In this document: positions 1,148 through 52,905 of the stretch, piece by piece | Layout: every line of letters begins with the position of its first letter | Position numbering within the stretch: position 1 is the first letter of the stretch | Source: Escherichia phage W22 | Direction: 5' to 3' (one strand) | Length of the DNA stretch: 64,000 nt | Sequence record: PV159336 | Position numbers and translations under genes: made by a program | The notes under the pieces: generated by a model | Databases searched by the model: none | Seen by the model: the letters and a program-made list of their open reading frames with translations, nothing else | What the model was told of the DNA's origin: nothing

Positions 1148-2554
1148 ATGGCAACTTTTCGTGATAAGGTAGTTTCCGTAACCCTTACCTACGGTGCTAC
1201 TTCAATTAGTGAAACACAGTTTGATATCCCTCTAATTCTTACAGGGCATAATGTTACTGGCAATCTTGTAGATTATTTCACTTCTTCAGACGCACTTCTG
1301 CAAGCAGGTTTTGGCACTGCCGATCCAGCTTATAAAATGGCAAAACTACTATTTGACGGTCTGTTCGCACCAGAACAAGTTATCGTCGGTAAGCGTGATG
1401 TTTCTAAAACAACTCTAACTCCAGTAGTTGAATATAGTGCAACTTACGTTATCACTATTAAAGCAAATTCAAAAAGCAAGGACTTCAAGTTTGTTGCCGA
1501 TGATACTGCAACTGCTCAAGAGATTGTTGTTGGTTTAACAGAAATGATCAACGCAGACATGGTGTATAAAGAATTCTTCACTGTGTCAAACGATGGTAGT
1601 GTTATCACTGTAACCCCAGTTGCAGGTAAATACGCTACTATGGATAGTTCAGGATTCACAACTAAAGTAGAATATGCAAATGATATCTTAGAAGATATTG
1701 CTAAAATTGCAGATTATGAAAACAGTTGGTTCTGGTTACTATCTGATTCTCACGCAGAACAAGATATTATCGATCTAGCAGGTTATGTAGAAGAGCACGA
1801 TAAAGTGTATTTCTTCTCTACCTCGCAACCAGGTGTTCTAACTAAAGAAGAAGATAACATTCTAGAACGCTTAGGTGATATGGGCTACAATAACACTTGT
1901 ATGGCATTGTGGATGACTAACGCTGATACAGTGTTCCCAGAGGCTGCTGTAGTTGGTTCTATCTGCTCTGCAACACCAGGTACTACTACCCTGCATGGTA
2001 AAACCCTTGTTGGTATCGAGATTGAAAAACTTGGTCAGACAGCAGAAAACTTTATCGTTCAACAGAATGGTAATATTTACCGTAAAGAACACGGTGTTCT
2101 GTTCTACCGTGATGGTTTCATGGTTAGTGGTTTCTATGTTGACTATGTGGTACACGCTCTGTGGTTCAAAGCTCGTGTAGAAGAATCTCTGTTCGCTCTA
2201 TTTAAACAGCAATCTATGCTTGGTAGTGGTGTTAGAGCAACTTCTGCTGGTCTTGCTTTGATTCGTCAGGCTGTTACTGCAAACCCAATCCAAGTAGGTA
2301 TTAACAATGGTTCTATTGCCAATGAGGTAGTAACTTCAGAGGAAACAGGACTTCTGGTAAGCCTTAAACCTACTATCTATATCCCATCTCGTGCAGATAT
2401 GACTGATGCTCAAATCAATGCACGTTTGGTTGATGGTATGGTTATTGAATACGTATATGCTGGATTCTTCCACTATGTTAAAGTGCAGGTAAACGTTCTG
2501 ACGAACCGCACTGCAAATAGCCAGAATTCCAATAGCTCTACTGTATCTTCATAA
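1148..2554 (+). CDS. tail sheath protein (contractile tail)
   Basis: 468-aa protein directly upstream of tube gene; N-terminal region resembles sheath proteins; gene order sheath-tube-chaperone-tape measure. Confidence 0.6.
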   Translation: MATFRDKVVSVTLTYGATSISETQFDIPLILTGHNVTGNLVDYFTSSDALLQAGFGTADPAYKMAKLLFDGLFAPEQVIVGKRDVSKTTLTPVVEYSATYVITIKANSKSKDFKFVADDTATAQEIVVGLTEMINADMVYKEFFTVSNDGSVITVTPVAGKYATMDSSGFTTKVEYANDILEDIAKIADYENSWFWLLSDSHAEQDIIDLAGYVEEHDKVYFFSTSQPGVLTKEEDNILERLGDMGYNNTCMALWMTNADTVFPEAAVVGSICSATPGTTTLHGKTLVGIEIEKLGQTAENFIVQQNGNIYRKEHGVLFYRDGFMVSGFYVDYVVHALWFKARVEESLFALFKQQSMLGSGVRATSAGLALIRQAVTANPIQVGINNGSIANEVVTSEETGLLVSLKPTIYIPSRADMTDAQINARLVDGMVIEYVYAGFFHYVKVQVNVLTNRTANSQNSNSSTVSS

Positions 2555-7165: not shown

Positions 7166-8176
7166 ATGGCAGAAGAAAGAAATTACACAAAAGCTCCTGC
7201 ACCAAATCTAAACAGAGCATACAAACTGTTAATAGGTACAGCTACTAATACTAAAGAAAAAAGGACAAAAAATTCCTCTTTCAAATCTACAGTAGACTTA
7301 GATACTAAACTAGGGGATGCTAAAAAATCAACCCCTAATTTGTATGTTATTACGGAGCACCAAATATCTTTCACAATAAGAAAAGATAATAATAAAGATC
7401 CTAATCAAGCCGAGATAACTATTTATAACCTAAGTGATGATACTGTTAATTATATTAACAAAGGTATTCGTAACAACTTGGCTGTTGCTTTGGCAGTAGG
7501 TTATGAAGGTCAAGAGTTAATTATGATCTTTAAGGGAACGGTGCAGTGGGTGAGTGATACCTTTAACAATACAGACAGACGTACAGTGTTACATTGTCTG
7601 GATGGTGGTATTAACATCTCCGAAGCAAGGACAAGCAGAAGTTATCCGAAAGGTACAAAAGTAAGTAAGGTTGTTAAAGATTTAGTTAAAGATTTAGGTA
7701 CTACAGAAGGTAATATTCACGTAGATACAGAGAAAACTTTATCATCTGCAACAGCTATGTGTGGGAACACATCACATTACTTAGAAAGTATCTGTAAAGG
7801 TATTGATCATAATGTGTCAATACAAGACGGATCTGTTTACGTGACACCAAGATCACAAATGTCTAGTGCAAGATGTGCATATATTAGCGCAGAAACAGGT
7901 TTAATTGGTAGTCCAGAACCTTTCCACAATGATATTAAACCGACACAAAAAGTAACCAAATCTTCTAAGAAAGCTAAAAAGCCTACAGATGGTGTTAAGT
8001 TCAGATGTGAGATGAACGGTGCTATTTTACCAGAAAAAACTGTTTGGCTCAAGAGCCATAACTACGATGGTGGTTTTAAGGTGGTGTCTGTTGTTCATAC
8101 AGGCGATAGGGAAGGTAAAGACTGGACAACTGAAGTAGAGTCTGTATCTGTATCTGCAATTATTAAGAAGGGCTAG
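7166..8176 (+). CDS. putative baseplate hub/tail protein
   Basis: 336 aa, position between tape measure and spike gene; assignment by synteny only. Confidence 0.3.
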   Translation: MAEERNYTKAPAPNLNRAYKLLIGTATNTKEKRTKNSSFKSTVDLDTKLGDAKKSTPNLYVITEHQISFTIRKDNNKDPNQAEITIYNLSDDTVNYINKGIRNNLAVALAVGYEGQELIMIFKGTVQWVSDTFNNTDRRTVLHCLDGGINISEARTSRSYPKGTKVSKVVKDLVKDLGTTEGNIHVDTEKTLSSATAMCGNTSHYLESICKGIDHNVSIQDGSVYVTPRSQMSSARCAYISAETGLIGSPEPFHNDIKPTQKVTKSSKKAKKPTDGVKFRCEMNGAILPEKTVWLKSHNYDGGFKVVSVVHTGDREGKDWTTEVESVSVSAIIKKG

Positions 8177-8178
8177 AA

Positions 8179-8916
8179 ATGGATGCTTTAAATTTTGTAA
8201 CAGCAATCCGTGGATTAATCAACGAGCAAGTTGCGGAAGTACATACATCTTTACCTGTAAGGGTAATTGGTGTAGATTATGGATCTAAGACAGTAACTTT
8301 AGAATCTATCGTAAAGAATACCAGATCTACTGAAGATGAAATAGATTACCCAACATTCCACGATGTTCCTTTTATGGTAAATGGTGGTGGTACAGGTAGA
8401 ATTTCATTTCCAATTAAAGCAGGAGATATTGGTGTTGTTGTCTTTTCAGAAAGAGATCCGTCGAATGCTTTCCAGACAGACGGAGATACAGCCAGTAGCG
8501 GAACATTAATTCAACCTTGTGGTTTGTATCCAGCCTGTTTTATTCCTAAGATAGCAACAGCTACGGATTCTTCTGAAGAAGTAGATTCTGAAAAAGTTGT
8601 TATCTCAAATAATAAGCAAACTTACGCTTCGTTTGATCCTAACGGTAATATATCTGTGTACAACACACAAGGTATGAAAATAGATATGACACCAGACAGT
8701 ATCGTTCTTACTGATGCAGGAGGAGGAAAACTTACACTGCAAGGTGGGACTATGACATATAAAGGTGGTACTGTAAATTTAAACGGTTTAACAATCACAC
8801 CTGACGGTCGTATGAAAGATAGTGGTGGCATTGGTTTACACACACATACACACCCTGTACGCGGTGTTGAAACTGGTGGTAGCACTGTTACTTCCGACAA
8901 ACCAAATGGAGGTTAA
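8179..8916 (+). CDS. baseplate central spike protein (gpV/gp5-like)
   Basis: 245 aa; N-terminal region resembles gpV-type spikes, Gly-rich beta-rich C-terminus ending in His-rich tip (HTHTHP). Confidence 0.5.
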   Translation: MDALNFVTAIRGLINEQVAEVHTSLPVRVIGVDYGSKTVTLESIVKNTRSTEDEIDYPTFHDVPFMVNGGGTGRISFPIKAGDIGVVVFSERDPSNAFQTDGDTASSGTLIQPCGLYPACFIPKIATATDSSEEVDSEKVVISNNKQTYASFDPNGNISVYNTQGMKIDMTPDSIVLTDAGGGKLTLQGGTMTYKGGTVNLNGLTITPDGRMKDSGGIGLHTHTHPVRGVETGGSTVTSDKPNGG

Positions 8917-8919
8917 CAG

Positions 8920-9555
8920 ATGGGAATACCATTTGATTTAAAACTTGATGGTTCTAACGATTTAGTAATGGTGGATGGTGATTTAACACTAACCACAACT
9001 AAAAGTGAAATTGCAGCACAGACGCTTGGAATAACACTTAGAACTTTCCGTGGAGAATGGTTCCTCAATTCTAATTTTGGGGTTCCATATCTGCAAGAGA
9101 TTATTGGTGTTGCCAAGAAGAAAGAGATTGTTGATCGCATTTTCTTATCAACTATCGCAAGTAATGTTTATATAGATAATATTAATTCCTACACATCCTC
9201 TTATGATAGAGATGATAGGTATTACTCAATGAACGTTACTGTTACAGTTGGTGAACAAGTTGTTAGTGCGCTGTTCAGTACACAGCCGTCTGAAGAATAT
9301 ATCTATCCAGAAGCTGGTGATGATAATGCAGCAATCACTTGTGAAGCATTTGAAATTGTTGAATCTGCAAATAGACTCTATCGCTTTATTAACATTGTTG
9401 GTCTTCCTAGAAATACTTATTCTACTTGGTGGAATGAGTGGTCTAACGAGGCATTGATTGAAAAATACCTTGTTAACGAAGCCAATAAAGGTCTTGCAAC
9501 CAATTACAACTATGCTATAACAGCAACAATGGGAGCTACAAACAATAATGGCTGA
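8920..9555 (+). CDS. baseplate protein, GPW/gp25-like
   Basis: Motif TLRTFRGEWFLNSNFGVPY resembles GPW/gp25 family core (GER...P.FG); follows spike gene. Confidence 0.45.
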   Translation: MGIPFDLKLDGSNDLVMVDGDLTLTTTKSEIAAQTLGITLRTFRGEWFLNSNFGVPYLQEIIGVAKKKEIVDRIFLSTIASNVYIDNINSYTSSYDRDDRYYSMNVTVTVGEQVVSALFSTQPSEEYIYPEAGDDNAAITCEAFEIVESANRLYRFINIVGLPRNTYSTWWNEWSNEALIEKYLVNEANKGLATNYNYAITATMGATNNNG

Positions 9556-35726: not shown

Positions 35727-35750
35727 GTAAAGGGGCTTTCGCCCCTTCTT
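35727..35750 (-). terminator. terminator-like hairpin upstream of DNA polymerase gene
   Basis: AAGGGGC-TTTC-GCCCCTT hairpin between convergently adjacent same-strand genes. Confidence 0.4.
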
Positions 35751-36157: not shown

Positions 36158-37930
36158 TTAATAAGAACCATCAGGAATATTCTCTGGGTTACTTGTGTAT
36201 TGATCGTAATCGTGAAGTGTAGCTGTTTTAATCTCATAGAAGAAACTACCTGCTGCACCAGTTTCTGAGAACTCACGGTTCTTTAGAATGTAGCAATATG
36301 TGCGGTTACGTTCCATAGGATCTTCAGCTTGTTTATCACGCTCCAGCGCAATTGTGATACCAGCACCTTTAGCAAGGAAGCTACTACCCATTGCATCATC
36401 TTCTACAATATGTTCATTACTATTGTTAGAAGACTTTTTAACGTGTGAAATTACAACAATGGTAATTGCGTACTCTTTCATAATGCGTTTGAGCCACGTC
36501 GCAAGTTCCTCTTGTTGTGACACGTCCATACCAGAAAGCAAGTCAGAATAAGGGTCGATAACAAGAATGGTTACTCCGAAATAAATAATCATTTCCAGAA
36601 CCTTCTCTTTAATCACATCTACGTTAGCTCCACGATCATCACAAACATAGAAACGTGGTGTTCCATCTTCTCGTTCGTAAAAATCACGAATCTTTTCTTC
36701 ATTATCTTTTAAAATCTTTTCCTTCTCTTCTTTTGTTTTACGGTGAAGAGGGATGTGCAAGAATGAAGACAGTAAGTTACGAGAATACTTCTTATACGTT
36801 GCCTCCAAAGATAAAATACCAAGAGTATGTTCTGGGTGTGCAAGAATAATGTGCTTCGTAATCTCGTTAACCAACAGTGTTTTACCGATACTTGTTTTTG
36901 CAAGTATAACAGTAATTTCTTCTTCTACCAAGCCTCCACCTAACATATTAGAAGCAACACGCATGAATGGAGGAAGGGTGATCATTTTAGCTTCCAGGCA
37001 TTCCAAGGCTGCTTCATACAGTACGTTAGAAGCATAAACACCAGCAGGTGTGTACAGTTTAGCTTTGAAAAAGCGATCAAGAAAGTGATCAATTTTTCCT
37101 TCTACTAGTGCCTGGTTAGGATCTTTAACATCCGTTAGTTCCATCACGTAAACTTTATTACGTGGTAAGATTTTAACACATTTCTCAACTGCTGCACGTC
37201 CAGCTTCATCATTATCCATACACAGAACAATCTTTTTAAATTGATCTAAGAATTTATAACGATGTTGAAGCTGCTTATGCAGAGATGTTTCGCCACAAGT
37301 ACCAGATACTACAGCAGGAACAGGATATTTACCGCCCTTGTTATAATCTTTTAGCATCTGTGTTGCAGCCAGCATATCGTGTTCACCACCAACAATTAGA
37401 ATAGTACCGCTGTGGTTACGATATTTAAACTCACCAAAAAGATCACAATCCTTTCCTGTTTCACCAATAGGATGCGAAAAATCTTTTGGATCGATACGTT
37501 GTTTATACCCAGCAATATTGTAATCTTTAGTTGTAGGGTATAATGTTGAAATTACTTCGCCAGTAGCTTCATCGTACATATAGCGTACACCGAAAGGTTT
37601 AGAGATATCTTCACGAATACCGCGATAACCTTTTGGATTAGTTCCAGTGCTGGCTTTTAGTTTATCATGTACTTCTGGATTAAACTCACTACCCAAGATA
37701 TCCTCCTCTTCAATTTCTTCGCCGTGTGCATTTAACCATTTTTGATCAGGGATAGTAAAGCCACAAGAAAAACAATGTGCGCCTCGATGGTCTTCATCGG
37801 CATCTAAGCCATATACCATCAAATTGTTTTGTGATCGATCACGCCCTCCTTTCATACAACGAGGACACCCAGTATGTCCTTCTTGACTTAGATCAATGTT
37901 ATACCCATATTTATTTACAACATAAGACAC
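36158..37930 (-). CDS. bifunctional DNA primase-helicase (T7 gp4-like)
   Basis: 590 aa; N-terminal zinc ribbon (CPRC...CFSCGF), TOPRIM-like acidic motif (LCMDNDEAG), C-terminal P-loop (AKTSIGKT). Confidence 0.8.
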   Translation of the reverse strand: MSYVVNKYGYNIDLSQEGHTGCPRCMKGGRDRSQNNLMVYGLDADEDHRGAHCFSCGFTIPDQKWLNAHGEEIEEEDILGSEFNPEVHDKLKASTGTNPKGYRGIREDISKPFGVRYMYDEATGEVISTLYPTTKDYNIAGYKQRIDPKDFSHPIGETGKDCDLFGEFKYRNHSGTILIVGGEHDMLAATQMLKDYNKGGKYPVPAVVSGTCGETSLHKQLQHRYKFLDQFKKIVLCMDNDEAGRAAVEKCVKILPRNKVYVMELTDVKDPNQALVEGKIDHFLDRFFKAKLYTPAGVYASNVLYEAALECLEAKMITLPPFMRVASNMLGGGLVEEEITVILAKTSIGKTLLVNEITKHIILAHPEHTLGILSLEATYKKYSRNLLSSFLHIPLHRKTKEEKEKILKDNEEKIRDFYEREDGTPRFYVCDDRGANVDVIKEKVLEMIIYFGVTILVIDPYSDLLSGMDVSQQEELATWLKRIMKEYAITIVVISHVKKSSNNSNEHIVEDDAMGSSFLAKGAGITIALERDKQAEDPMERNRTYCYILKNREFSETGAAGSFFYEIKTATLHDYDQYTSNPENIPDGSY

Positions 37931-37942
37931 ATGATTCTCCTA

Positions 37943-38212
37943 CTAAAATGATTCGTTTGTCTCCATAATATATTGCATTTCCAAATCTTCCATATGTTTC
38001 TTAAATTGGTAAACAATTTCCGATGGGGAAATATCTATATCAAAAAGTTCTTTTGTACCAGAATAAAACCTAATACCGTCAACAATAAGTCCACCATAAT
38101 AATCCCAATCACTTTCTCGTGAGAAAGGATTAGGTTCTTCATAATAGTAATCTACTTCAACAATAATAGGTTCTTTATTATCTTGTTTATACTCAAAATC
38201 AAAAGTGTTCAT
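37943..38212 (-). CDS. hypothetical protein
   Basis: 89-aa acidic ORF coupled upstream of glycosyltransferase gene. Confidence 0.35.
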   Translation of the reverse strand: MNTFDFEYKQDNKEPIIVEVDYYYEEPNPFSRESDWDYYGGLIVDGIRFYSGTKELFDIDISPSEIVYQFKKHMEDLEMQYIMETNESF

Positions 38213-39156
38213 TATAAATCCTCGATAAGCAGTCTGCGGGTTTCATTTAAATCATCAATATTGTAGTTATCTCTTACATATTTAGCAAGAGCCAATCCTT
38301 TCTCAATACAAACATCAGGAGATTCGATTAAGTATTCTACAATATCTTTCCACTCTTTAACTGAATCAGCAAAGAAGATTAGATCTTTAAATTCTTCAGT
38401 ATAGTAGTTCTCTCGTGGAGAACAAACGAGTGGCAAACCTTTAGCACCAGCCTCAAGAATTTTTAAATTACTTTTGGCATTATTAAAATGATTATTTACT
38501 AATGGAGCTATGGAGATTTGATGACCATCGTATGCTTCCATATAACACTCATAAGGACGAATACCTTCATAAACACAATCTGGTTGAATCTCTTCTTTAA
38601 TTTGCAACCATTGAGCACTACTTAACTCTTCGTGATCTCTACGAAATCCACATAAAGTTAAATCTTTACCAAAAGCAGGAAGAATTGCTAAATCATGTTT
38701 ATGTGTTTCACTTCCCGCCCAAACCAGTGGGCTTTTAGAATAACGATCTTTAGTAAGAACAAACTGCCCTTCATCAAAAGGTAGTCCGTTAGGCACAATA
38801 TGTACATTATCATTGTATTGGCTTAATTCAACCTTTAATGCTGGAGTTGTTGTAGTTACAAGATCGCTTCTTTCAAGGAACCATTTTAGGTCATCTCGGA
38901 TTTGACTTTCAAATAATCCTTCCAGCATATGCCCTTCAGGAATAATTAAAGAATCATCCAGATCCATTACCAATTTAAACCCAAGTTGTTTAAGAGCCAG
39001 GAAACCTGGCTTTCCACGAGTTGGTACTCCATTGAATACAAAAATATTATGCTTAGGATTAATAGTCAGTTTGCGTTTATATGGCAAAATGATTCTATGA
39101 AAATCACATACACTATACCTTTCATGTCCACGTGTGTCAAGAATAATATTAGGCAT
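38212..39156 (-). CDS. glycosyltransferase, GT-B fold (GT4-like), paralog 1
   Basis: C-terminal KILEAGAKGLPLVCSP resembles GT4 donor-binding motif; clear paralog of adjacent gene. Confidence 0.5.
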   Translation of the reverse strand: MPNIILDTRGHERYSVCDFHRIILPYKRKLTINPKHNIFVFNGVPTRGKPGFLALKQLGFKLVMDLDDSLIIPEGHMLEGLFESQIRDDLKWFLERSDLVTTTTPALKVELSQYNDNVHIVPNGLPFDEGQFVLTKDRYSKSPLVWAGSETHKHDLAILPAFGKDLTLCGFRRDHEELSSAQWLQIKEEIQPDCVYEGIRPYECYMEAYDGHQISIAPLVNNHFNNAKSNLKILEAGAKGLPLVCSPRENYYTEEFKDLIFFADSVKEWKDIVEYLIESPDVCIEKGLALAKYVRDNYNIDDLNETRRLLIEDL

Positions 39157-39167
39157 ATGGCTCCTTG

Positions 39168-40181
39168 TTAAAGACTTTCAATAACTTGACGACGCAGTTC
39201 ATTGGCATCTGCAAGATTATAATTAAGACGAACGTGTTCTGCAAGCATCATACCACGATCTTCTGTGTATCTAGGGTTCCTCATTAGCTTGACAACTTCA
39301 TAATGCCAAGATGCTTTAGAGTCTGCATAAATAACAGCCTTTGCATCTACCGGATTGAAGTACGGCAGCACAGGAGAACAGATAATAGGAAGACCCTTTG
39401 CACCTGCTTCCAAAATCTTCAAATTGCTTTTACAGTTGTTGAAGTCATTATCTACCAGAGGAGCAATTGCAATACTGTGACCGTCATACACAGACATATA
39501 CTCACCTAAATTTTTAATAGCTGGTTTATACTGTGCATTTGGAATTTTACGTTTTACTTTAACCCACTCCGCAGTAGTTAGATACTGACTATTATTTCCA
39601 ACAGGTGCAGAAGGATACACTTCATACCCTGCAATTGTCAATAGCGTATCATCAAATGTGTTAGCTACAAGAGATAAATCAGGTTCATGGCTTGCTCCTC
39701 CAGCCCAAACGATAGGCGTGTCAGAATAACGGTCTTTTGTCAAAGTAAATTGACCTTCATCGTAAGGTAGTGCGTTTCTAATAACGACAACATTACGATT
39801 TAAATGACGAATTTTGTAAGCTAGGTATTCTGTTGTTACAGTAACAACATCTGCTAACTTAACCATCTCTACAATAGTCTTTGAGTGATTAGTAAATACG
39901 CCAGCCATATAATGTTCAGGATTAAGCGAATAAAAGTCATCTAAATCAACAATAATCTTAACACCTTGTGCCTTCAGGCGTTTAACTTCGTCTGATCCAC
40001 GAGAATACACTCTATTAAAAACTAAAACGTCTTTCTTAGGCTTAAACGTATTTCCCGCAAATGGCATTACAATACGATGGTAATCACAACCACTGCCTAA
40101 CTTATTATCACACTTAAGTACAGGAGTATTAGGATTTACCATATTTTTGAGCCTCCTCATAAGAGATAAAAGTTTTACCAT
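39168..40181 (-). CDS. glycosyltransferase, GT-B fold (GT4-like), paralog 2
   Basis: Shares blocks with 38212..39156 (LTKDRYS..P.VWAG, YDGH.I.IAPLV.N.FNN.KSNLKILEAGAKGLP); tandem duplication. Confidence 0.5.
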   Translation of the reverse strand: MVKLLSLMRRLKNMVNPNTPVLKCDNKLGSGCDYHRIVMPFAGNTFKPKKDVLVFNRVYSRGSDEVKRLKAQGVKIIVDLDDFYSLNPEHYMAGVFTNHSKTIVEMVKLADVVTVTTEYLAYKIRHLNRNVVVIRNALPYDEGQFTLTKDRYSDTPIVWAGGASHEPDLSLVANTFDDTLLTIAGYEVYPSAPVGNNSQYLTTAEWVKVKRKIPNAQYKPAIKNLGEYMSVYDGHSIAIAPLVDNDFNNCKSNLKILEAGAKGLPIICSPVLPYFNPVDAKAVIYADSKASWHYEVVKLMRNPRYTEDRGMMLAEHVRLNYNLADANELRRQVIESL

Positions 40182-40815
40182 TGCGAAGATCCTCCAGTGA
40201 TTGTTTATATTGTTCCCAGTTTACACCAATCCCCTGTTCTTTCTCTTCTTTTGACAGATTCGCAAAAGGTAAAGGGTTGTCTCCAAACACATCATCAGGA
40301 TGGATAAACGCCATAATTCGAATAGGACATGGTACGCCCTGAATACCTCGGTTCAAACCTGCTAGTGGAACGCGCTGAATCCACTCTGCATCTTCATATC
40401 CATAACCGTGGGTGTATGAGCGGAAATAGCCAGCTTTCTCAATAACTGCACGGGAATACATACCAAACTGGCACATACCTAGTTCCCAAATAACCACTTC
40501 ACCTTCAATACCTTTTACTTTATCTTTAAAGTATTCAGGCATACCAAAGAAATCCCAGCCATTTTCCTTAGCTTGTTTTACAAAATATGTTTCCCAACCT
40601 GGCACAACCGGATAGCAATCATCATCAAAAATAAACCAGTAATCATACCCTTCATCATAAAACTTTTTCATCAGTTCATTACGAGCATATGCAACACCTT
40701 TTCGTTCCCGATCATACTGTACAACAAAAGTAGCATTAGGATCAGTCACAAGATAATCTTTAAGAGGACGCTTACCTACAGTAATAACACCAACACCAAT
40801 TTTTGTATTTTCCAA
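40129..40815 (-). CDS. glycosyltransferase, GT-A fold (DXD motif)
   Basis: 228 aa; YDYWFIFDDDCYP (DXD) and downstream GYGYEDAEW motif. Confidence 0.5.
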   Translation of the reverse strand: MENTKIGVGVITVGKRPLKDYLVTDPNATFVVQYDRERKGVAYARNELMKKFYDEGYDYWFIFDDDCYPVVPGWETYFVKQAKENGWDFFGMPEYFKDKVKGIEGEVVIWELGMCQFGMYSRAVIEKAGYFRSYTHGYGYEDAEWIQRVPLAGLNRGIQGVPCPIRIMAFIHPDDVFGDNPLPFANLSKEEKEQGIGVNWEQYKQSLEDLRNGKTFISYEEAQKYGKS

Positions 40816-40824
40816 AATAACTCC

Positions 40825-41388
40825 TTAAATAATTTTATTCATGTCTTGACAATGTAAAAGGTGTGAAACAGCTTTTCTAGGATCATCATTACCTAAACGG
40901 TATGTGTGAAATAAATATAACCCACGTAGTAAACCTAGCCTTTTATTGTTAGCGTGTAATGCTTTAGAGAAAATTATATCAAACTGTATTGATCTTTCCT
41001 CAAAAGGGATTTCATTCCACAAACTCTTACGAAAGAGAAGAAAGAATCCTGCTAAGATAGCATCTGTAGGTACTTCCTCTATTGAGTTTCCCCATTCTAG
41101 ATGTGCTCTTTTTGCAATCTCAATGTGGTGTAATATATTTGGATCTTCACTTCTTTCATTATTAAATAATTGATATGTTGATCCCAGTCTATTACAAGAT
41201 GCACCAAGAACATCAAAATCAGGATTTGAACGGACTATTGATTCCAACCAAGCAGGTTGTTCTGGAAGAAGAAACATTGTATCAATGTCTCTTAGGCAAA
41301 TCCAACTATCTTCTGGTAAGACACTTATTGTGTCATTGATACCTTTTCCAATATCTCCAGAAAGATAGGGAGTTATGTGAAATATCAT
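40825..41388 (-). CDS. possible GT-A-like glycosyltransferase / hypothetical
   Basis: 187 aa; ICLRDIDTMF could be a DXD-type motif; weak. Confidence 0.3.
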   Translation of the reverse strand: MIFHITPYLSGDIGKGINDTISVLPEDSWICLRDIDTMFLLPEQPAWLESIVRSNPDFDVLGASCNRLGSTYQLFNNERSEDPNILHHIEIAKRAHLEWGNSIEEVPTDAILAGFFLLFRKSLWNEIPFEERSIQFDIIFSKALHANNKRLGLLRGLYLFHTYRLGNDDPRKAVSHLLHCQDMNKII

Positions 41389-42136: not shown

Positions 42137-42646
42137 TTAGCGATAGAATTGATGTTCTTTGTAGCGGTACACCAGAACCATATCTTTTTCCCAGTGTGCT
42201 CTTATTGTAGATTTTTTAAAGTATAATGCTCCTTTTGTAATATCTAATGCAATTCGTAATTCTGGAAAATGGTTATCGAGATAAAGTAGACGTTCTGCTA
42301 TAGCTTTAGCGTCTTTCCACTTATCGTGTTCCATAACGTTGAATGTCTTCGTGTAAGAGAATTGTCCTTTCTGAAACAAAACTTCTTTTATAGTATCAGG
42401 GAAATATGAATCTCTAGCCCTATTCAATACTACATTACCAACAGCAGACATACCGCGCTTTCCTTGATTACGACTTTCTGCATAGATTGCACAAGCTAAT
42501 AGATTTTCTTTACTATCACGCTTTGTACACTTGTGAACTACTTTAGCAGTTTTTACGTTTGCAGCTTCGGCTTGCGCCACAACAGGTGTAAATGTAAAAG
42601 CAGTTAAGGATAGTAACGCAATTGCGACAAAGGTTTTTATTGACAA
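42137..42646 (-). CDS. secreted cell wall hydrolase (SleB/Hydrolase_2-like), candidate endolysin
   Basis: N-terminal signal peptide (FVAIALLSLTAFTFTPVVAQA) and motif AIYAESRNQ...AVGNVVLNR typical of SleB-like hydrolases. Confidence 0.55.
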   Translation of the reverse strand: MSIKTFVAIALLSLTAFTFTPVVAQAEAANVKTAKVVHKCTKRDSKENLLACAIYAESRNQGKRGMSAVGNVVLNRARDSYFPDTIKEVLFQKGQFSYTKTFNVMEHDKWKDAKAIAERLLYLDNHFPELRIALDITKGALYFKKSTIRAHWEKDMVLVYRYKEHQFYR

Positions 42647-43366: not shown

Positions 43367-43390
43367 ATGCGCCCCGAAGGGCGCTATGAT
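43367..43390 (-). terminator. rho-independent terminator after TerD-like gene
   Basis: GCGCCC-CGAA-GGGCGC hairpin followed by T-rich tract on - strand. Confidence 0.45.
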
Positions 43391-43405: not shown

Positions 43406-44002
43406 TTACTCGAACCAATCGTCGCCAGCGCCAAACGCTTTAACTACATCGTAAATGTCAAGCCCAGCTTTACCTACACCATATGCTTTCAGTTTCCATT
43501 CGCTATCTTCTCGCACCAGGGAGGCAACGTGGCAAATGGTGTTACCTGCAAGTTCTGGAGCCAAGAAGTCAAAGTCCAGCAGTTCAACATTACGTTCATC
43601 ATCGAAGATTTTAAGGAAACCTTCGGTAGCGTGACCAAGGCGTTTCTTACCCGTTTCGTCATCAATAGTAATTACGAATGCAATTTCCTGTGCTTCAGCA
43701 GAGATATTATCCAGTGTAACATCAATCTGCTCCATCTGTCCTACACCATCACGAACATCTTCACCTGCAAAAGTAGAACGTTCAGGATCAAATTTCTGCG
43801 CGTAGCACACCAGGTGACGAGGAGACAACAGTTCCGGCAGACCAGATGCATTGTGTCGGCAAATCAGAGCACTAACATCCAGATCCAGTTTTTCGTTAGA
43901 TTTCCAAGAGAATTCCAGACGAATGCGTTTCAGTGCTGGTGCGATCTTTTTCAGAGAAACTTTTTCGCTAGAACCTTTTTTCAGGGAAATTTTCTGAGTC
44001 AT
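43406..44002 (-). CDS. terD: TerD-domain protein (tellurite-resistance TerD/TerZ/TerE family)
   Basis: 198 aa; MTQKISLKKGSSEKVSLKK..., LDLDVSALI, IAFVITIDDE, EWKLKAYGVGKAGL track the TerD domain along its whole length (compared with E. coli TerD from memory). Confidence 0.85.
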   Translation of the reverse strand: MTQKISLKKGSSEKVSLKKIAPALKRIRLEFSWKSNEKLDLDVSALICRHNASGLPELLSPRHLVCYAQKFDPERSTFAGEDVRDGVGQMEQIDVTLDNISAEAQEIAFVITIDDETGKKRLGHATEGFLKIFDDERNVELLDFDFLAPELAGNTICHVASLVREDSEWKLKAYGVGKAGLDIYDVVKAFGAGDDWFE

Positions 44003-44074: not shown

Positions 44075-44869
44075 TTACGCTTTTGCTCCGAATTTTTTAA
44101 CCCACTCACCAAACTCTTCGGATAACAGTTTATCGTAAAGTTCTTCATCAGACAAGGACAAATCTGCAATACCGATAAAATCAACATTATCGTACTCTTT
44201 TGCCAAGTCTTTCAGGAATTTAAAGTTTGCATTACCTACACCAACCATAAACCAGTAAACAGGCGTATTGCGGTGTTTGTTCAGTAAGCTACGTACTGCT
44301 GAAGTATCCATGTTTTCCCCGTCAGTTTGGAAGAAAATCATTGCAGGAGTACGATCAACTTGTGCATCAGTATCTACAACCTGTTCTACAACAGTACGTG
44401 TTACTTCTACAAGTTCTTTTTTACCAGTTAGTTTAGCAAGGAAACCCTTAGCCGGGACTTCTTCATACTCAACGACTTCACGTGTAATATTTTTCATAGG
44501 TACACTACCGAAGTATGTATCATAGATCTCTTGCATTACTGGAGCATAAGCAGTACCACCGTTGATGCAAACATTAGACATGCAAGAGCCGACATAATCA
44601 TCATACACATCAGCCGTTGCAGGAGGCAGTTCAAAAGAAGAACTATTGAAAGCCCACATGTCAATCTGTGCATTATCATCAAACTTCATACCAAACGGCA
44701 GCAGTTTACCTACAAAATCACTAACAGTGCCATCACGATACAGCTCACACATACTACCCGAAATATCTAAGGCGCTACCGACACGAAGAACAACATCGTT
44801 AATCTTTTTCTTACGCAGAGATACAGTAAGAGTTTCTTGACGTTTTTTAAGACTGATTTTATTGGACAT
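44075..44869 (-). CDS. von Willebrand factor A domain protein (TerY/TerF-C-like)
   Basis: MIDAS motif DISGSM, then GGTAY and FFQTDGENMD; N-terminus ISLKKRQETLTVSLRKK echoes TerD first strand. Confidence 0.65.
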   Translation of the reverse strand: MSNKISLKKRQETLTVSLRKKKINDVVLRVGSALDISGSMCELYRDGTVSDFVGKLLPFGMKFDDNAQIDMWAFNSSSFELPPATADVYDDYVGSCMSNVCINGGTAYAPVMQEIYDTYFGSVPMKNITREVVEYEEVPAKGFLAKLTGKKELVEVTRTVVEQVVDTDAQVDRTPAMIFFQTDGENMDTSAVRSLLNKHRNTPVYWFMVGVGNANFKFLKDLAKEYDNVDFIGIADLSLSDEELYDKLLSEEFGEWVKKFGAKA

Positions 44870-45896: not shown

Positions 45897-46129
45897 TACA
45901 CATTCTCCTCTTTTACCAATTCCATCGTTGAACTATCAAAACCATCTTTAGAAGAATAGGTATAGACAGAACGTAGTTCTCGCAGGACAGTAAATACATT
46001 AGGATCATCTAACCAAGCATCCTGGAGGAGAACATAACGATCTTCATTGTCGTACTGGACAGCGATCATAGAACCAGACAGTTTGTAAATTTTAATATTC
46101 ATAATATATTGCTCCTTAAAGTAGACCAC
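45896..46129 (-). CDS. hypothetical small protein
   Basis: 77-aa ORF overlapping upstream gene end. Confidence 0.3.
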   Translation of the reverse strand: MVYFKEQYIMNIKIYKLSGSMIAVQYDNEDRYVLLQDAWLDDPNVFTVLRELRSVYTYSSKDGFDSSTMELVKEENV

Positions 46130-47219
46130 GTTTAACAGTTTGAATCATACCATCTTCAAGAGATTGCACTTCTTGAATATAATCAATACGAGCAGCACGG
46201 GCTTCAGTGTTGATTCGGTTAGTTTCTTCCAACATTTTAACTAAGTTTTCTTGATCGCGACGTAATGTTTCAATATCCAATACTTGACGATTAGCAAGTT
46301 GCGTAGCTTCAATTTGGTTTTGTGAAGCCAGATCACTACCCATTGCAATAGCAGCATTAAATTCATTCAGTACATTGTTCTGTGTATCGGCTGCTTTCTT
46401 CTGGCGTAGACTTTCAATATACATAGAAAAGTTTGCAGAGTAAGCAGGGATAACATTATTCACAATGTTACGTGCTGATCGCATCAAACTTGCAGATACT
46501 TTCTGCATACTTTGTACACGTGGCCCCATCTGAACACACAGTAAACGCAAGGCTTTCAGGTCTGCAATACGAATTTCAAGCAGATCCATAGTATCACGAG
46601 TACGTTGACGCTCTTCTACTTCATTTTCAGGTAGTGTATTAAGGCGAACTTCTTCTTTTTCATAAGTAGCTGTTAGAAGCTCTATATCCCTGTTTAAGCT
46701 AAGAGCATATTTTGCAATAGCCTCTTCTAAACGTTGCAGATATCGTAAAGAATCTTCTTCTTTTTTCAAGTCTGTTTGGAGTGTCTTTACCAAACCTTCA
46801 ATACGATTATTGATGGTGTCAAATTCACCAAACAAATCTTCTTTCATACCTAATACTTTCTTAACTAGTTTACCTAAGCCTTTAGATTGTTTAATAGAGT
46901 TAGGATCAAGTTGCTTTGCTTGCTTAATAAGTGCAGTTAAACGTTCACTCATTTCATCTCCCTGAGATGAACGCTGGTGTTTAAGCACTTCAGCATTAAG
47001 GTTACGAAGAGTAAGTCCTGCATCAGCACCAACTTGTTCAATCTCTTCACGAGACATTGGAGGCAGCATTTGTACAGGTCGTGCAACAGCAGGGGCATAT
47101 ACAGGGCTTGCATCCATAGCACTTGGAGCAAACAAAGACTTACTTTTTTCTGTTGTTGCCGTGAATACACTCATTTCAGACGGTTTGCTTTTTACGGCAC
47201 TGATAAAAGGACTGGACAT
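46116..47219 (-). CDS. TelA-like (toxic anion resistance) coiled-coil protein, tentative
   Basis: 367 aa, predominantly helical/coiled-coil; call rests largely on size, composition and neighbourhood with TerD/TerC/vWA. Confidence 0.4.
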   Translation of the reverse strand: MSSPFISAVKSKPSEMSVFTATTEKSKSLFAPSAMDASPVYAPAVARPVQMLPPMSREEIEQVGADAGLTLRNLNAEVLKHQRSSQGDEMSERLTALIKQAKQLDPNSIKQSKGLGKLVKKVLGMKEDLFGEFDTINNRIEGLVKTLQTDLKKEEDSLRYLQRLEEAIAKYALSLNRDIELLTATYEKEEVRLNTLPENEVEERQRTRDTMDLLEIRIADLKALRLLCVQMGPRVQSMQKVSASLMRSARNIVNNVIPAYSANFSMYIESLRQKKAADTQNNVLNEFNAAIAMGSDLASQNQIEATQLANRQVLDIETLRRDQENLVKMLEETNRINTEARAARIDYIQEVQSLEDGMIQTVKRGLL

Positions 47220-48997: not shown

Positions 48998-49975
48998 TTA
49001 AGCAACAGCCTGGTCTTCTTTTTCAGGGAAGATTAAACTTGCAATAACACCCAGCCCCAGAGTACCTAACACAATATACATACTGATCGTCGGATCAATG
49101 TGTGCTGGCAGGAAACTCACTTTTGCGTGCAGAGTTTCTGCAAACGGGTGATACATCAGTTTTACACCCACAAATACCAGGACTACGATAACTGCTTTCT
49201 CCAGATGAACCAAATATTTCAGTGCAACACTAAGGACAAAGAACAGAGCACGTAGACCTAAAATTGCACACAGCATTGAAGAAAATACAAGCAGAGGTTC
49301 TTGTGTCACTGCAATTACTGCTGGAACAGAGTCTACTGCAAAGATTACGTCAACCATTTCCATTACAAACACACAAACCAATGCAGGAGTTGCTACACGA
49401 ACACCATTTTTGATTGTGAAGAACTTCTCACCATCCATCTGATCAGATACAGGGAACAGCTTACGAACAATGCGAGTAGCCCAGTGTTTAGAGTAATCAA
49501 CTTCTGCGTCATTATCTCCAGCGAATACCATTTTAGCTGCACAGAAAAGGATGACCGCACCGAAGAAGATATTAACATACCAGCCCAAACTCAACAAGTA
49601 AGTACCTACTGCTACAAACACACCTCGGAAGACAATCGCACCTGCAATACCCCAAAGTAGAATCTTGTGTTGCAAGTGTGTACTTTTAATACCAAAACTT
49701 GCGAATACTGCCACAAATACTACTAAGTTATCTACAGAAAGAGATTTCTCCAACACATACCCACTCAAGAACAAGCTCGCAAAATCAGCACCGTGTTGGA
49801 AGTATACAAAACCATAGTAGGCTAATGATACCCCAATCCAGAAAATTGACCAGCCAATTGCAGATTTAAATGAAATTTCTTTGTTTTCCCTGTGTCCAAA
49901 GAAATCAATACAAATCGACAAGACTAAAATACCCACTAAAACAACCACATCAATAATTGGGAAACCCAGTTGCAT
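48998..49975 (-). CDS. terC: TerC-family integral membrane protein
   Basis: 325 aa, multiple TM helices; signature motifs LEKSLSVDN and second-repeat FAVDSVPA characteristic of TerC family. Confidence 0.8.
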   Translation of the reverse strand: MQLGFPIIDVVVLVGILVLSICIDFFGHRENKEISFKSAIGWSIFWIGVSLAYYGFVYFQHGADFASLFLSGYVLEKSLSVDNLVVFVAVFASFGIKSTHLQHKILLWGIAGAIVFRGVFVAVGTYLLSLGWYVNIFFGAVILFCAAKMVFAGDNDAEVDYSKHWATRIVRKLFPVSDQMDGEKFFTIKNGVRVATPALVCVFVMEMVDVIFAVDSVPAVIAVTQEPLLVFSSMLCAILGLRALFFVLSVALKYLVHLEKAVIVVLVFVGVKLMYHPFAETLHAKVSFLPAHIDPTISMYIVLGTLGLGVIASLIFPEKEDQAVA

Positions 49976-50531: not shown

Positions 50532-51248
50532 TTATTTCAGTTTGTAAACAATTACATTTAAACCTTTGTTTACTAGAGTTTCTTCGATCATAAGTTTTAC
50601 AATATTCCAAGAACCTCCAGCCAAACCACAACCAAGCATTGGTAAACCTACAATTTTACCGCCTGAAGATACAACATCGTCTCCCATACTATCTAACGCA
50701 TTGTAGATAGCTTCATAATTCAGGTCACGCTTACCTTCCTCACGACGACTATAACCATATTGTCCATATAAATTATAAATTGTCAAATTGTTTTCTGTAT
50801 ACTTAGTAAACGTACCTAATTTTTTATAATCACCACGTTTAGTGGCACAATCTGCTTTAAACGCACCAGGCCACTTGCTTTTAATTTTTGGTGCAATACC
50901 ACTACCCATAGTGCAAAAACAGTTACAGCAGTGTGCTATAGCGTCTATATCGCCTCTCTCGGCTGCTGCTAAAAGATCACCGTATACCTCAATGATACCT
51001 GCTGGATAACTTGTTACAATTTCATCTTCCCAGTACATTTGCTCTACACCACCGATCAGTGCAAAGTTTTGTGTAATGCGATCATCAATATAATTAAGAC
51101 CTGAAACATACACAGCATATTCATCCTGTGCTGTAATGCCTTGTACACGAATTCTTAAGACACCATCTTTATCTGTTGCTACACGCCCAAAATCTTTTTC
51201 TGTAATATTGGTGATAGGATCTCCGAAAGTCGTCACTTTATTAGACAT
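50532..51248 (-). CDS. macro domain protein (ADP-ribose binding/processing)
   Basis: DAIAHCCNCFCTMGSGIAPKI and VGLPMLGCGLAGGSW resemble macro-domain blocks; start taken at internal ATG 51248 overlapping PRTase stop. Confidence 0.5.
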   Translation of the reverse strand: MSNKVTTFGDPITNITEKDFGRVATDKDGVLRIRVQGITAQDEYAVYVSGLNYIDDRITQNFALIGGVEQMYWEDEIVTSYPAGIIEVYGDLLAAAERGDIDAIAHCCNCFCTMGSGIAPKIKSKWPGAFKADCATKRGDYKKLGTFTKYTENNLTIYNLYGQYGYSRREEGKRDLNYEAIYNALDSMGDDVVSSGGKIVGLPMLGCGLAGGSWNIVKLMIEETLVNKGLNVIVYKLK

Positions 51249-52098
51249 AATAATCCCCTTTAACATTAGATTTGTTGATAATGTTGCTTTCAAAAAATTG
51301 ACGCAGGAAATCAAAGTTCTCTTTGTATTTTTCAATATTATTGTAACCTTCTGCAAGGCAACCAAAGAACAGTTGTTCTACATAATACAAAGGAAGTTGT
51401 GAAAGTGCAATTTTAAAATCAACTTCGCTTTGACTCATTAGATACTTAATAGGACGAACCAAACATTTAGCATCAGTTTCTTGCTTAATCATTTTAATAA
51501 AAGCTGCCAGGTTATTGATATAGTTGAAGTTAAGTGCAGCTTCGGTGTTGGCTTCTGTACCTTCATACTTTGCAAAGTACAGGAAAAACGTATCGTTTTC
51601 AACACCTTCTTTGTCTAAAATTTCAATAAGTTTTTCTTCGTGTGTTCCTGTAATATTAACATCATCAATGAAAATCAGAGTTTTATTACCCCAGAAATCA
51701 CGATTGATAGAGAAAGTGTCACCATCGATCAAAGCCTTACGATCTTCTTTGCTAAGAAATCCATAATCATTGATATAACTCACTTTACGATGAACGATAT
51801 CCCACTCTACTGCTTTACCTCCTTTGATAGAGATTAGGTAGTTGAGGTGATCTACAAAATGTTCAGATAACACTGTAGCTGCATTTTTCACATAGTTATA
51901 TGGAGATGGAATAACAACAAAACTTTCATTTACTAGTCGTTCTTCATATTTAGAAAAGAAACTTTCAGCCAGAATGCGTCCCATTCTTTTTGCTGCCTGG
52001 TTACTACCAAACTTTAGTTTGGAATAATCTGCAATGTTAAATTTTGCTTCCTTCAGGTTAGTAAAAGTATTAGCAAAATGTTGAATTTGATTACGCAT
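51241..52098 (-). CDS. phosphoribosyltransferase (type I PRTase fold) domain protein
   Basis: PRPP-binding motif TLIFIDDVNITGTHEE (hydrophobic-DD-hydrophobic-x-TG); 285 aa with uncharacterised C-terminal half. Confidence 0.55.
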   Translation of the reverse strand: MRNQIQHFANTFTNLKEAKFNIADYSKLKFGSNQAAKRMGRILAESFFSKYEERLVNESFVVIPSPYNYVKNAATVLSEHFVDHLNYLISIKGGKAVEWDIVHRKVSYINDYGFLSKEDRKALIDGDTFSINRDFWGNKTLIFIDDVNITGTHEEKLIEILDKEGVENDTFFLYFAKYEGTEANTEAALNFNYINNLAAFIKMIKQETDAKCLVRPIKYLMSQSEVDFKIALSQLPLYYVEQLFFGCLAEGYNNIEKYKENFDFLRQFFESNIINKSNVKGDYYV

Positions 52099-52747
52099 TA
52101 ATAAGTTCCTCTTTTTTAAGTTTAGCCAACAAGTCTTCTGGATTAATAATATGACAGAACTTCATCCCTATGTCAACAGCTTTTCCATCATAAATCAAAC
52201 TATCTCCAACGTGTAAAATCTCCTCTGGTGCGAGATCAAACGTTACCATTTCATCAAAAGAGAGTTTAAAAAACCTAGGATCTGGTTTACACAAGCAAAA
52301 CTCATCAGAAAAATGCATAAAGTCAAATGGTAATTTTGTTAAGCCAGAATATACAGCTAAGAAACTACCTGGTACAAAATTAGTATTGCTCTTAATACTC
52401 AAAGAATAGATTGAACTTAGCTCTTCCAACTTCTTGCAAAGCTCAGGGTTCAATATTGGAGGATGTTTTATAAACATTGCTAAACAGTCTCTTTTTAACC
52501 CATCTACTTTATCAAGATCAATGTTCAAACGAGTAGAAAGTGTTTCCCAAGCATTCCTAGACGTTCCACAAATGCCTTTTTCTGCTTTTAAATCCAGGAG
52601 AGTTTTTACCTCTTTATATACAGTAGCTGCTTCTGCCTCAGAACAAGAGGCATACTCGGCAATAACCTTGTTGCGTTCTTCTGCATACAAAGGATTAGCA
52701 GTAATAAGAGTATTCCATACATCAAAAGAAATATGCTTAACAGTCAT
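52091..52747 (-). CDS. HAD-superfamily hydrolase
   Basis: Motif I HISFDVWNTLI (DxxxT(L), dehalogenase-like variant) and motif IV HVGDSLIYD; start set at ATG 52747 with GGAGGA RBS. Confidence 0.55.
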   Translation of the reverse strand: MTVKHISFDVWNTLITANPLYAEERNKVIAEYASCSEAEAATVYKEVKTLLDLKAEKGICGTSRNAWETLSTRLNIDLDKVDGLKRDCLAMFIKHPPILNPELCKKLEELSSIYSLSIKSNTNFVPGSFLAVYSGLTKLPFDFMHFSDEFCLCKPDPRFFKLSFDEMVTFDLAPEEILHVGDSLIYDGKAVDIGMKFCHIINPEDLLAKLKKEELINA

Positions 52748-52749
52748 TT

Positions 52750-52905
52750 TTAATCCTCCGTCCAAAAGAATATCATCTGCTTAATTTTATTGATCTCTTG
52801 ATGTAGTAACTTTCCAGCATGTGATTGATCTTTAATATTGATAGCAAGAATTTCAAGCTCCGTTAGTTTTTCTTGGATAGCTTTATATTCATCATCTGTA
52901 AGCAT
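52750..52905 (-). CDS. small hypothetical protein (51 aa), not in ORF track
   Basis: ATG at 52905 to TAA at 52750-52752; stop abuts HAD RBS; coiled-coil-like sequence. Confidence 0.25.
   Translation of the reverse strand: MLTDDEYKAIQEKLTELEILAINIKDQSHAGKLLHQEINKIKQMIFFWTED

Follow-up and report, generated by a model that had tools for sequence, protein, structure and literature searches.

What do the clustered glycosyltransferases (GTs) of a lytic E. coli phage glycosylate? The question is raised by Escherichia phage W22 (PV159336), of which a stretch of 64,000 nt, called here the window, was analysed; the gene cluster in question lies within its positions 37,943-41,388. The source phage is a 146-kb E. 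coli myovirus of the genus Justusliebigvirus (phi92-like, Stephanstirmvirinae), and the 6 kb around the cluster are 99.4% identical to phage pEC-M2929-1AR.1 and 98.3% identical to the BASEL phage EmilieFrey (Bas61). The latter, approximately 98% identical, was used as a whole-genome stand-in for the parts outside the window. The genes of the cluster are already labelled as glycosyltransferases in GenBank records. Here we propose, at somewhat better than even confidence, that they constitute an O-glycosylation system acting on the phage's own capsid and tail proteins. This reading is favoured because related gene cassettes are embedded among the terminase, portal and major capsid protein (MCP) genes of other phages, because a C-terminal Thr tag on capsid and tail tube proteins tracks one of the enzymes, with matched controls and a blind test in agreement, and because the genes for dTDP-L-rhamnose synthesis (RmlABCD) co-occur with the cassette and a sugar-nucleotide enzyme gene is inserted in two of the cassettes.

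A mobile cassette of soluble glycosyltransferases

All four GT genes are on the minus strand (38212-41388), at the coordinates given by an earlier note made from the sequence of the window, with a primase/helicase gene (36158-37930) on one side and a Hydrolase_2 cell-wall hydrolase gene (42137-42646) on the other. That note had described two paralogous GT-B genes, a GT-A gene with a DxD motif and a possible further GT between these two flanking genes, and both the identification and the placement are confirmed. The 187-residue product of 40825..41388 (-), for which GT4 is used as a working label ("GT4-like", when said of the GT-B proteins, is a family term), is a minimal GT-A-fold glycosyltransferase and the proposed initiating protein O-glycosyltransferase. 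GT-A (40129..40815, -; 228 residues, TTG start) is GT2/GT7C-like and would extend the glycan. GT-B2 (39168..40181, -; 337 residues, probable true start at 40142) is a GT-B-fold, GT4-like enzyme and the ancestral copy of the pair; GT-B1 (38212..39156, -; 314 residues), 41% identical to it (E=5e-82), is its diverged tandem duplicate, because GT-B2 is consistently nearer to the outgroup orthologues. The duplication is limited to Justusliebigvirus, Phapecoctavirus and related contigs.

The four genes encode soluble glycosyltransferases, two of the GT-A and two of the GT-B type. GT-A matches phrog_2456 (E=2e-79) and has one Rossmann-like domain with a DxD motif, as expected of the GT-A fold, and its family shares invariant FDDD (D64-66), YGxED and D175. 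The GT-B proteins have two Rossmann-like domains in GT-B topology. GT-B1 matches Pfam Glyco_trans_1_2 (PF13524) with 26.8 bits (cut-off 25), and the Glyco_trans_1-type scores of GT-B2 (14.7-17.9 bits) are below the cut-offs, with PF13524 or PF13692 found in many of its homologues. The best fold matches of the GT-B proteins are PglA-like enzymes, PimA/B, WaaG, WbnH and TarM, which act on lipid-linked or envelope glycans. Those of GT4, in which R67 and R164 are invariant, include the Listeria teichoic-acid rhamnosyltransferase RmlT, SpsA and mimivirus R655 and R699; among viral proteins, the closest to it in structure is a Cellulophaga phage GT. Maximal Kyte-Doolittle values (19-residue window) of 0.83-1.21 leave all four proteins without a membrane-spanning or strongly hydrophobic segment. 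Single-sequence and profile searches of PDB sequences gave no match, and NCBIfam no family, for any of the four.

Profile hidden Markov models (HMMs) of the cassette genes were applied to 78 viral-contig loci and to the other loci of the set (loci are numbered with the prefix L). The GT-B homologues labelled as bacterial are all within prophages, where their neighbours are orthologues of GT4 and GT-A (BLASTP) and keep the gene order of the window. GT-A adjoins GT-B in nearly all loci with a GT-B at least 35% identical, and most of these loci also have GT4 next to the pair. The order itself differs between lineages (GT4-GTA-GTB[-GTB], GTA-GTB-GT4, GTA-GTB or GTB-GTA). GT4, GT-A and GT-B form a mobile, conserved cassette with a permuted gene order, and the persistence of their linkage through rearrangement indicates a single pathway. 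Overlaps of 1-53 nt between the genes for GT-A and GT-B occur in every lineage examined and suggest coupled expression.

Two classes of genomic context can be delineated. In class 1, the large rV5-like myoviruses including the window phage, the order is cell-wall hydrolase, further genes, GT4-(SDR)-GTA-GTB(-GTB), a gene for an 89-residue protein, primase/helicase and DNA polymerase, SDR being an NAD-dependent sugar-nucleotide epimerase/dehydratase. Class 2 covers approximately 21 loci in which the cassette has the same orientation as the TerL-portal-MCP genes; they come from several phages, unrelated to one another, that are 40-90 kb in size or temperate. Here the cassette either lies immediately upstream of the TerL gene or fits exactly between the gene for the MCP and those for head completion, the latter placement being found in two independent lineages (L007/L031 and L035/38/49/52/55). 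In essentially every class-1 locus GT-B is followed by the gene for the 89-residue acidic protein (in the window 37943..38212, -; phrog_4240, E=8e-35; pI 4.1), which was found at this place in none of the class-2 loci; whether the protein belongs to the system is uncertain.

The make-up of the cassette varies within the subfamily, and presumably the glycan does too: the class-1 relatives L016, L017, L020 and L102 (Klebsiella phage KP13-26) have GT4 and one or two copies of GT-B, with no GT-A. The SDR gene lies between GT4 and GT-A in two unrelated phages, the Enterobacter temperate siphovirus L005 (8354-9376) and the large myovirus contig L029 (about 7946-9300). In Streptomyces phage Zuko, a neutral case with no C-terminal tag, an SDR gene is directly upstream of a 25%-identical GT-B homologue, itself upstream of the terminase. 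Distant solo GT-B homologues (approximately 30% identity) were also found (L061, L062, L083 and L091; L063, L064 and L067). Some of these contigs have a Dam-like methyltransferase gene and TerL adjacent; in others the next ORF encodes a protein of 231 residues that matches no Pfam family and whose end is very rich in Thr (...TSQTDVPNFGTFTTT).

Threonine-rich ends of virion proteins

The MCPs encoded beside the cassette end in ...APTT, ...HPTT, ...SSSTT, ...VAPTT or ...ANTTT. Among all fetched loci, 33 of the 1,954 open reading frames (ORFs) of at least 100 codons end in TT, and almost all of them encode, in a phage that carries the cassette, its MCP or its major tail protein. According to Pfam these are MCPs of three families (PF05065, PF03864 and PF20036) and tail-tube proteins of at least three. 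In class-2 loci with GT4, 24 of 236 co-oriented ORFs of this size end in TT (14 of the 16 loci), as against none of 206 in the class-2 loci with only GT-A and GT-B (0/15 loci).

Relatives without the cassette served as matched controls. The Gp13-like MCP of L007 ends in ...SSSTT, and its counterpart in Medea1, which is 91.5% identical and has the same synteny, in ...TPAA; the major tail proteins of the two (68% identical) end in ...SEPTT and ...SAVVA, respectively. Similarly, the HK97-type MCP of L005 ends in ...ANTTT and that of Stx phage 2851 (67% identical) in ...SASGG. In L031 the MCP (...VAPTT) and the major tail protein (...LEPTT) are both tagged. Eight Cellulophaga phages carry a GT4 homologue and, as none of them had been used in framing the hypothesis, they provided a blind test. 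In Cellulophaga phage phi18:1, which has a GT4-domain glycosyltransferase inside the head module, the MCP ends in ...VSGT and the major tail protein in ...TVGT, and only 3 of the 39 proteins of the genome end in Thr.

In the window itself the candidate glycan acceptor is the S/T/N-rich C-terminal tail (2504..2551, +; ...RTANSQNSNSSTVSS) of the tail sheath protein (gene 1148-2554), identified by the EmilieFrey annotation and PF11863. A filter for Thr/Ser-rich C-termini retained 3 of the 233 ORFs of EmilieFrey, namely the MCP, the tail sheath (...NSQNSNSSTVSS, ending in ...NSSTVSS) and a 71-residue ORF. The MCP (...KLTTA) and the head decoration protein (...VVFTS), encoded just outside the window, are further candidates. 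The 71-residue ORF (EmilieFrey 111716-111931, -; outside the window) ends in ...EDDITTT and is the sole non-structural protein with a Thr-rich extreme C-terminus.

Comparable ends recur in related myoviruses. The decoration protein ends in ...TS in all four cassette-bearing lineages (...FTS in EmilieFrey, Phapecoctavirus and KP13-26, ...ATS in 05F01) and not in rV5 or 4MG; the MCP ending ...LTTA and the S/T-rich sheath tail are each found in three of the four. The sheath proteins of KP13-26 (...TSSSTTSNSSTTSS) and 05F01 (...TTTSTNSNTTTVSA), both from cassette-bearing phages, have tails similar to or richer than that of the window phage. In rV5, which has no cassette, the decoration protein ends in ...LGEE, the MCP in ...LKGGE and the sheath in ...AVAMTE. 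As evidence for acceptors, the endings in the window phage are suggestive only.

The donor sugar is indicated by an operon outside the window, which in EmilieFrey encodes RmlA, RmlB, RmlC and RmlD with scores of 471, 442, 259.8 and 253.6 against NCBIfam equivalog cut-offs of 360.65, 365.1, 155.75 and 224.05, respectively. Among 50,697 phage records RmlC, GT-B and GT4 have almost the same spread: 54 records with RmlC and 53 with GT-B at 95% identity or above, 54 with GT4 at 99% or above, and 77, 79 and 77 records, respectively, at 60-80%. From this we infer that rhamnose is a sugar used by the cassette GTs.

The proposed mechanism would run as follows. Once the structural proteins are made, GT4 would add the first sugar to a Thr or Ser at the very C-terminal end of those that are abundant on the surface. 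The inverting, GT2/7-like GT-A and the GT4-like, probably retaining GT-B would then lengthen it into a short oligosaccharide, probably containing rhamnose, with the duplicated GT-B of the window lineage adding a further sugar or linkage. The phage RmlABCD enzymes would provide dTDP-L-rhamnose after host shut-off. With tail sheath, MCP and head decoration protein as acceptors, the window myovirus would have its head and tail coated with glycan, as has been demonstrated by experiment for mycobacteriophage Che8.

Several observations weigh against virion glycosylation. In the window phage the cassette lies among replication genes and not among head genes, none of the proteins ends strictly in TT, the tags are looser than those of class 2, and the Thr/Ser filter was defined after the data had been seen. 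The MCP ending is absent in 05F01 and the sheath tail in Phapecoctavirus, and the cassette-bearing myoviruses form one clade, in which shared endings amount to approximately one evolutionary event. The contrast in TT ends between class-2 loci with and without GT4 (Fisher p=3e-7) carries no phylogenetic correction and comes from about 4-5 independent lineages. Lineages with GT-A and GT-B and without GT4 have no tag, and both enzymes can evidently serve another acceptor. Furthermore, the MCP of Acinetobacter phage vB_AbaS_Gln (PP294865; L097 6020-6976) ends in ...LSGTTTTG, while its 50-kb genome has no annotated glycosyltransferase; its tail-tube protein has no tag, and the MCP is either an exception to the association of tag and cassette or modified by something else. 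The glycans themselves are postulated from genes and protein ends, and the C-termini are candidate surface acceptors.

DNA, envelope glycans and other acceptors

The earlier note named DNA, a host surface glycan and a virion protein as possible substrates and leaned towards DNA on account of the early-region placement. Its gene identifications stand, the DNA lean is not supported, and of the three options the comparative evidence favours the last, as the cassette tracks the C-terminal Thr tag in other lineages. Were DNA the acceptor, rhamnose or another sugar would be put on hydroxylated bases against restriction, as in T-even phages, and rhamnosylation of hydroxymethylated nucleotides has been proposed for the phi92-like group (Olsen et al., 2020; PMC7552041). 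We regard this as very improbable, even if the class-1 cassette adjoins primase/helicase and DNA polymerase genes and the class-2 cassette the equally DNA-related terminase, some distant solo GT-B genes are beside a Dam-like methylase, and the genome encodes C5- and N6-DNA methyltransferases. The T4 alpha- and beta-glucosyltransferases and the systems of RB69, DLP3 and HY126 (arabinosyl-5-hydroxycytosine) share with the window phage GT-B-fold enzymes, serial GTs, a phage-made sugar-nucleotide supply and an early or replication-gene location. However, characterised glycosyl-DNA pathways begin with a thymidylate-synthase homologue, a ThyA-related hydroxymethylase or hydroxylase being needed, and the resulting DNA resists restriction (PMC13326640). 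A genome-wide search of the kind suggested by the earlier note, run in EmilieFrey (genome annotation and a Pfam scan of 28 further, mostly unannotated, proteins), found no ThyA-type hydroxymethylase, TET/JBP or dNMP kinase, and no base-hydroxylating enzyme. The sole thymidylate synthase is of the Thy1/ThyX type (PF02511, 36.9 bits), a 323-residue protein (EmilieFrey 124839-125810, L004 24839-25810; outside the window) with genes for an NT5C-like nucleotidase and a thymidine kinase adjoining. With 35.5 bits, where the NCBIfam equivalog cut-off is 87.9, it is divergent and its assignment putative, which leaves the DNA hypothesis some room. On the other hand, the "Vequintavirinae and relatives", Bas61 included, have been reported as "exceptionally susceptible" to restriction-modification systems "despite a putative dTDP glycosylation machinery" of the phi92-like phages (PMC8594841). 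The GT-B proteins are no more similar in structure to the DNA-modifying enzymes than to any other GT-B enzyme (T4 AGT ranks 18th, T4 BGT 33rd and the HY126 DNA arabinosyltransferase 41st among the fold matches), and the cassette is also found in small temperate phages, inside the head module. A relation of GT-A to the TET-associated glycosyltransferases (TAGT, PF20691), with which it shares the GT-A fold and DxD motif, could also speak for DNA: TAGT is its best single Pfam match, and 15 of the 22 family members match weakly (best E=6.8e-5). The score of the window protein, 23.3 bits, is nevertheless below the gathering score of 27.5, and the alignment spans only the N-terminal 60 residues around the DxD motif. 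Of the 1,475 relatives found in a full-library profile search, the 65 remote ones matched Glycos_transf_2 (39/65), Glyco_transf_7C (30/65) and TAGT (8/65, all weak, best E=1.6e-5). The TAGT identity was rejected as non-specific on the grounds of the sub-threshold score, the mainly GT2/GT7C remote relatives and the lack of a TET/JBP partner in the 98%-identical genome.

The enzymes could instead alter a host surface polysaccharide or lipid-linked precursor (enterobacterial common antigen, the N4 glycan receptor or lipopolysaccharide) and thereby exclude superinfection or adsorption to debris. The kinds of enzyme that the GT-B proteins resemble most in structure would fit, as would the likeness of GT4 to Listeria RmlT and SpsA; rhamnose is a common envelope sugar, surface glycans serve as receptors for these phages, and the cassette is beside lysis genes in some lineages. 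We nonetheless hold an envelope target to be quite unlikely. None of the four GTs has a membrane segment, and partners of the GtrA/GtrB, flippase or polymerase kind are missing; seroconversion genes are not usually sited between those for the MCP and head completion, and complete modification of surface glycans during lytic infection was judged futile by the BASEL authors (PMC11990801). The GtrABS prophage systems resemble the cassette in being phage-borne glycosylation genes that affect phage-host recognition, but they consist of membrane proteins (flippase, bactoprenol GT and GT-C-type transferase), and no Gtr homologues or families were among the Pfam or PHROG matches of the four GTs. A host protein, modified in the course of takeover (for example by EarP-like rhamnosylation), or a small molecule or metabolite is an unlikely acceptor as well. 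PHROG files all four GTs under "moron, auxiliary metabolic gene and host takeover", the placement in the window phage is early or middle, the lineages with only GT-A and GT-B have untagged virion proteins, and the nearby Ter, PRTase, HAD and macrodomain genes suggest metabolite chemistry. Still, the fold matches include no specific similarity to protein-toxin GTs or EarP, and a run of three to four GTs implies that an oligosaccharide is made, which would be unusual for an inactivating modification. Neither an envelope target nor a host protein or metabolite explains why Thr-tagged capsid and tail proteins go with the cassette, and the latter also leaves the embedding in the head module unaccounted for.

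Surroundings, known systems and implications

A scan for promoters and terminators gave no signal above chance, and within the GT cluster it showed no terminator on the minus strand. Two GC-rich perfect hairpins, at 35730-35747 and 43369-43384 (AAGGGGCTTTCGCCCCTT and GCGCCCCGAAGGGCGC), flank the block of minus-strand genes extending from those on the TerD side, by way of the GTs, to the primase/helicase. The hydrolase at 42137-42646 (-) is of the SleB type, has a signal-peptide-like N-terminus (MSIKTFVAIALLSLTAFTFTPVVAQA) and is distinct from the annotated endolysin (EmilieFrey 115104-115604); such a gene is upstream of the cassette in nearly all class-1 loci of which the upstream flank was recovered. 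Directly downstream of the GT cluster, in window coordinates, there is a tellurite-resistance-like set, also on the minus strand (TerD 43406-44002, vWA-TerF-like 44075-44869, TelA 46116-47219 and TerC 48998-49975), followed at 50532-52765 (-) by genes for a macrodomain protein, a ComF-like PRTase_3 and a HAD hydrolase. This block resembles the Ter stress-response neighbourhoods of bacteria but belongs to a lytic phage. Four records named as Campylobacter phages (MG065639, A150; MG065645, A145; MG065656, C3; MG065689, A110a) are 98.4% identical to the window phage over 6 kb and also carry GT-B, GT4 and RmlC; their C. jejuni host label looks doubtful (contaminant or mislabelled).

Virion glycosylation by phage enzymes has a precedent in actinophages. 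In mycobacteriophage Che8, as reported in PMC11256854 (citing Freeman et al. 2023, Cell Host Microbe 31:1216), glycans are covalently attached to the major capsid protein. The Che8 genome has three consecutive GT genes (gp108-110) followed by HNH and TerS-TerL, an arrangement like that of prophage L005, and its MCP and major tail protein end in ...KTGS and ...SDGS. Freeman and colleagues are said to have located the glycans on the C-termini of the capsid and tail-tube subunits. The two systems are alike in a short C-terminal hydroxyl-amino-acid tag common to MCP and major tail protein (...GS/...GS in Che8, ...TT/...TT in class-2 phages and ...GT/...GT in Cellulophaga phage phi18:1) and in the proposed outcome, a glycan coat on head and tail. 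The enzymes differ: those of Che8 are three of the GT-A type with no GT-B, and no homology to the cassette GTs was found (HMM E>1e-3; hhalign probability at most 1.3%). The window system is also set apart by Gram-negative hosts, a 146-kb myovirus genome, a location in the replication region, looser tags and a dTDP-rhamnose pathway of its own, and while glycosylation has been demonstrated for Che8, for the window phage it is predicted. The apparent resemblance is functional and not familial.

Giant viruses, such as chlorovirus PBCV-1 and mimivirus, glycosylate their own structural proteins in the cytoplasm with soluble GTs and their own sugar-nucleotide synthesis, including that of rhamnose. 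Mimivirus R655 and R699 are among the fold matches of GT4, but the hosts are eukaryotic and the GT families different, and we know of no C-terminal tag logic in giant viruses.

The genes of the cluster, their annotation as GTs and virion glycosylation in actinophages were already known; the system proposed here would be a variant with non-homologous enzymes, in phages that infect Gram-negative bacteria. In the literature searched, the coverage of which was incomplete, neither the function proposed nor the concept of the cassette nor the C-terminal Thr-tag rule was found. More broadly, and with slightly less than even confidence, we suggest that virion O-glycosylation is widespread in phages of Gram-negative bacteria (Enterobacteria, Pseudomonas and Bacteroidota), with GT4 reading a C-terminal Thr common to the MCP and the tail-tube or sheath proteins, the GT-A/GT-B pair extending the glycan, and the glycan of phi92- and phAPEC8-like phages being built with phage-made dTDP-rhamnose.

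Host ranges are very broad among the phi92-like and phAPEC8-like phages. Should the virions be glycosylated as proposed, the glycan coat could change recognition by antibodies, as shown for mycobacteriophages, as well as stability and interactions with mucus and surfaces, and it would explain the complete rhamnose pathway that earlier authors called "peculiar". Hundreds of generic glycosyltransferase annotations would then become a testable system, and a portable C-terminal tag together with a three-gene cassette would offer a simple route to engineered glycosylated phage particles. Phages would also have acquired capsid glycosylation on at least two occasions, with unrelated enzymes following the same tag logic.

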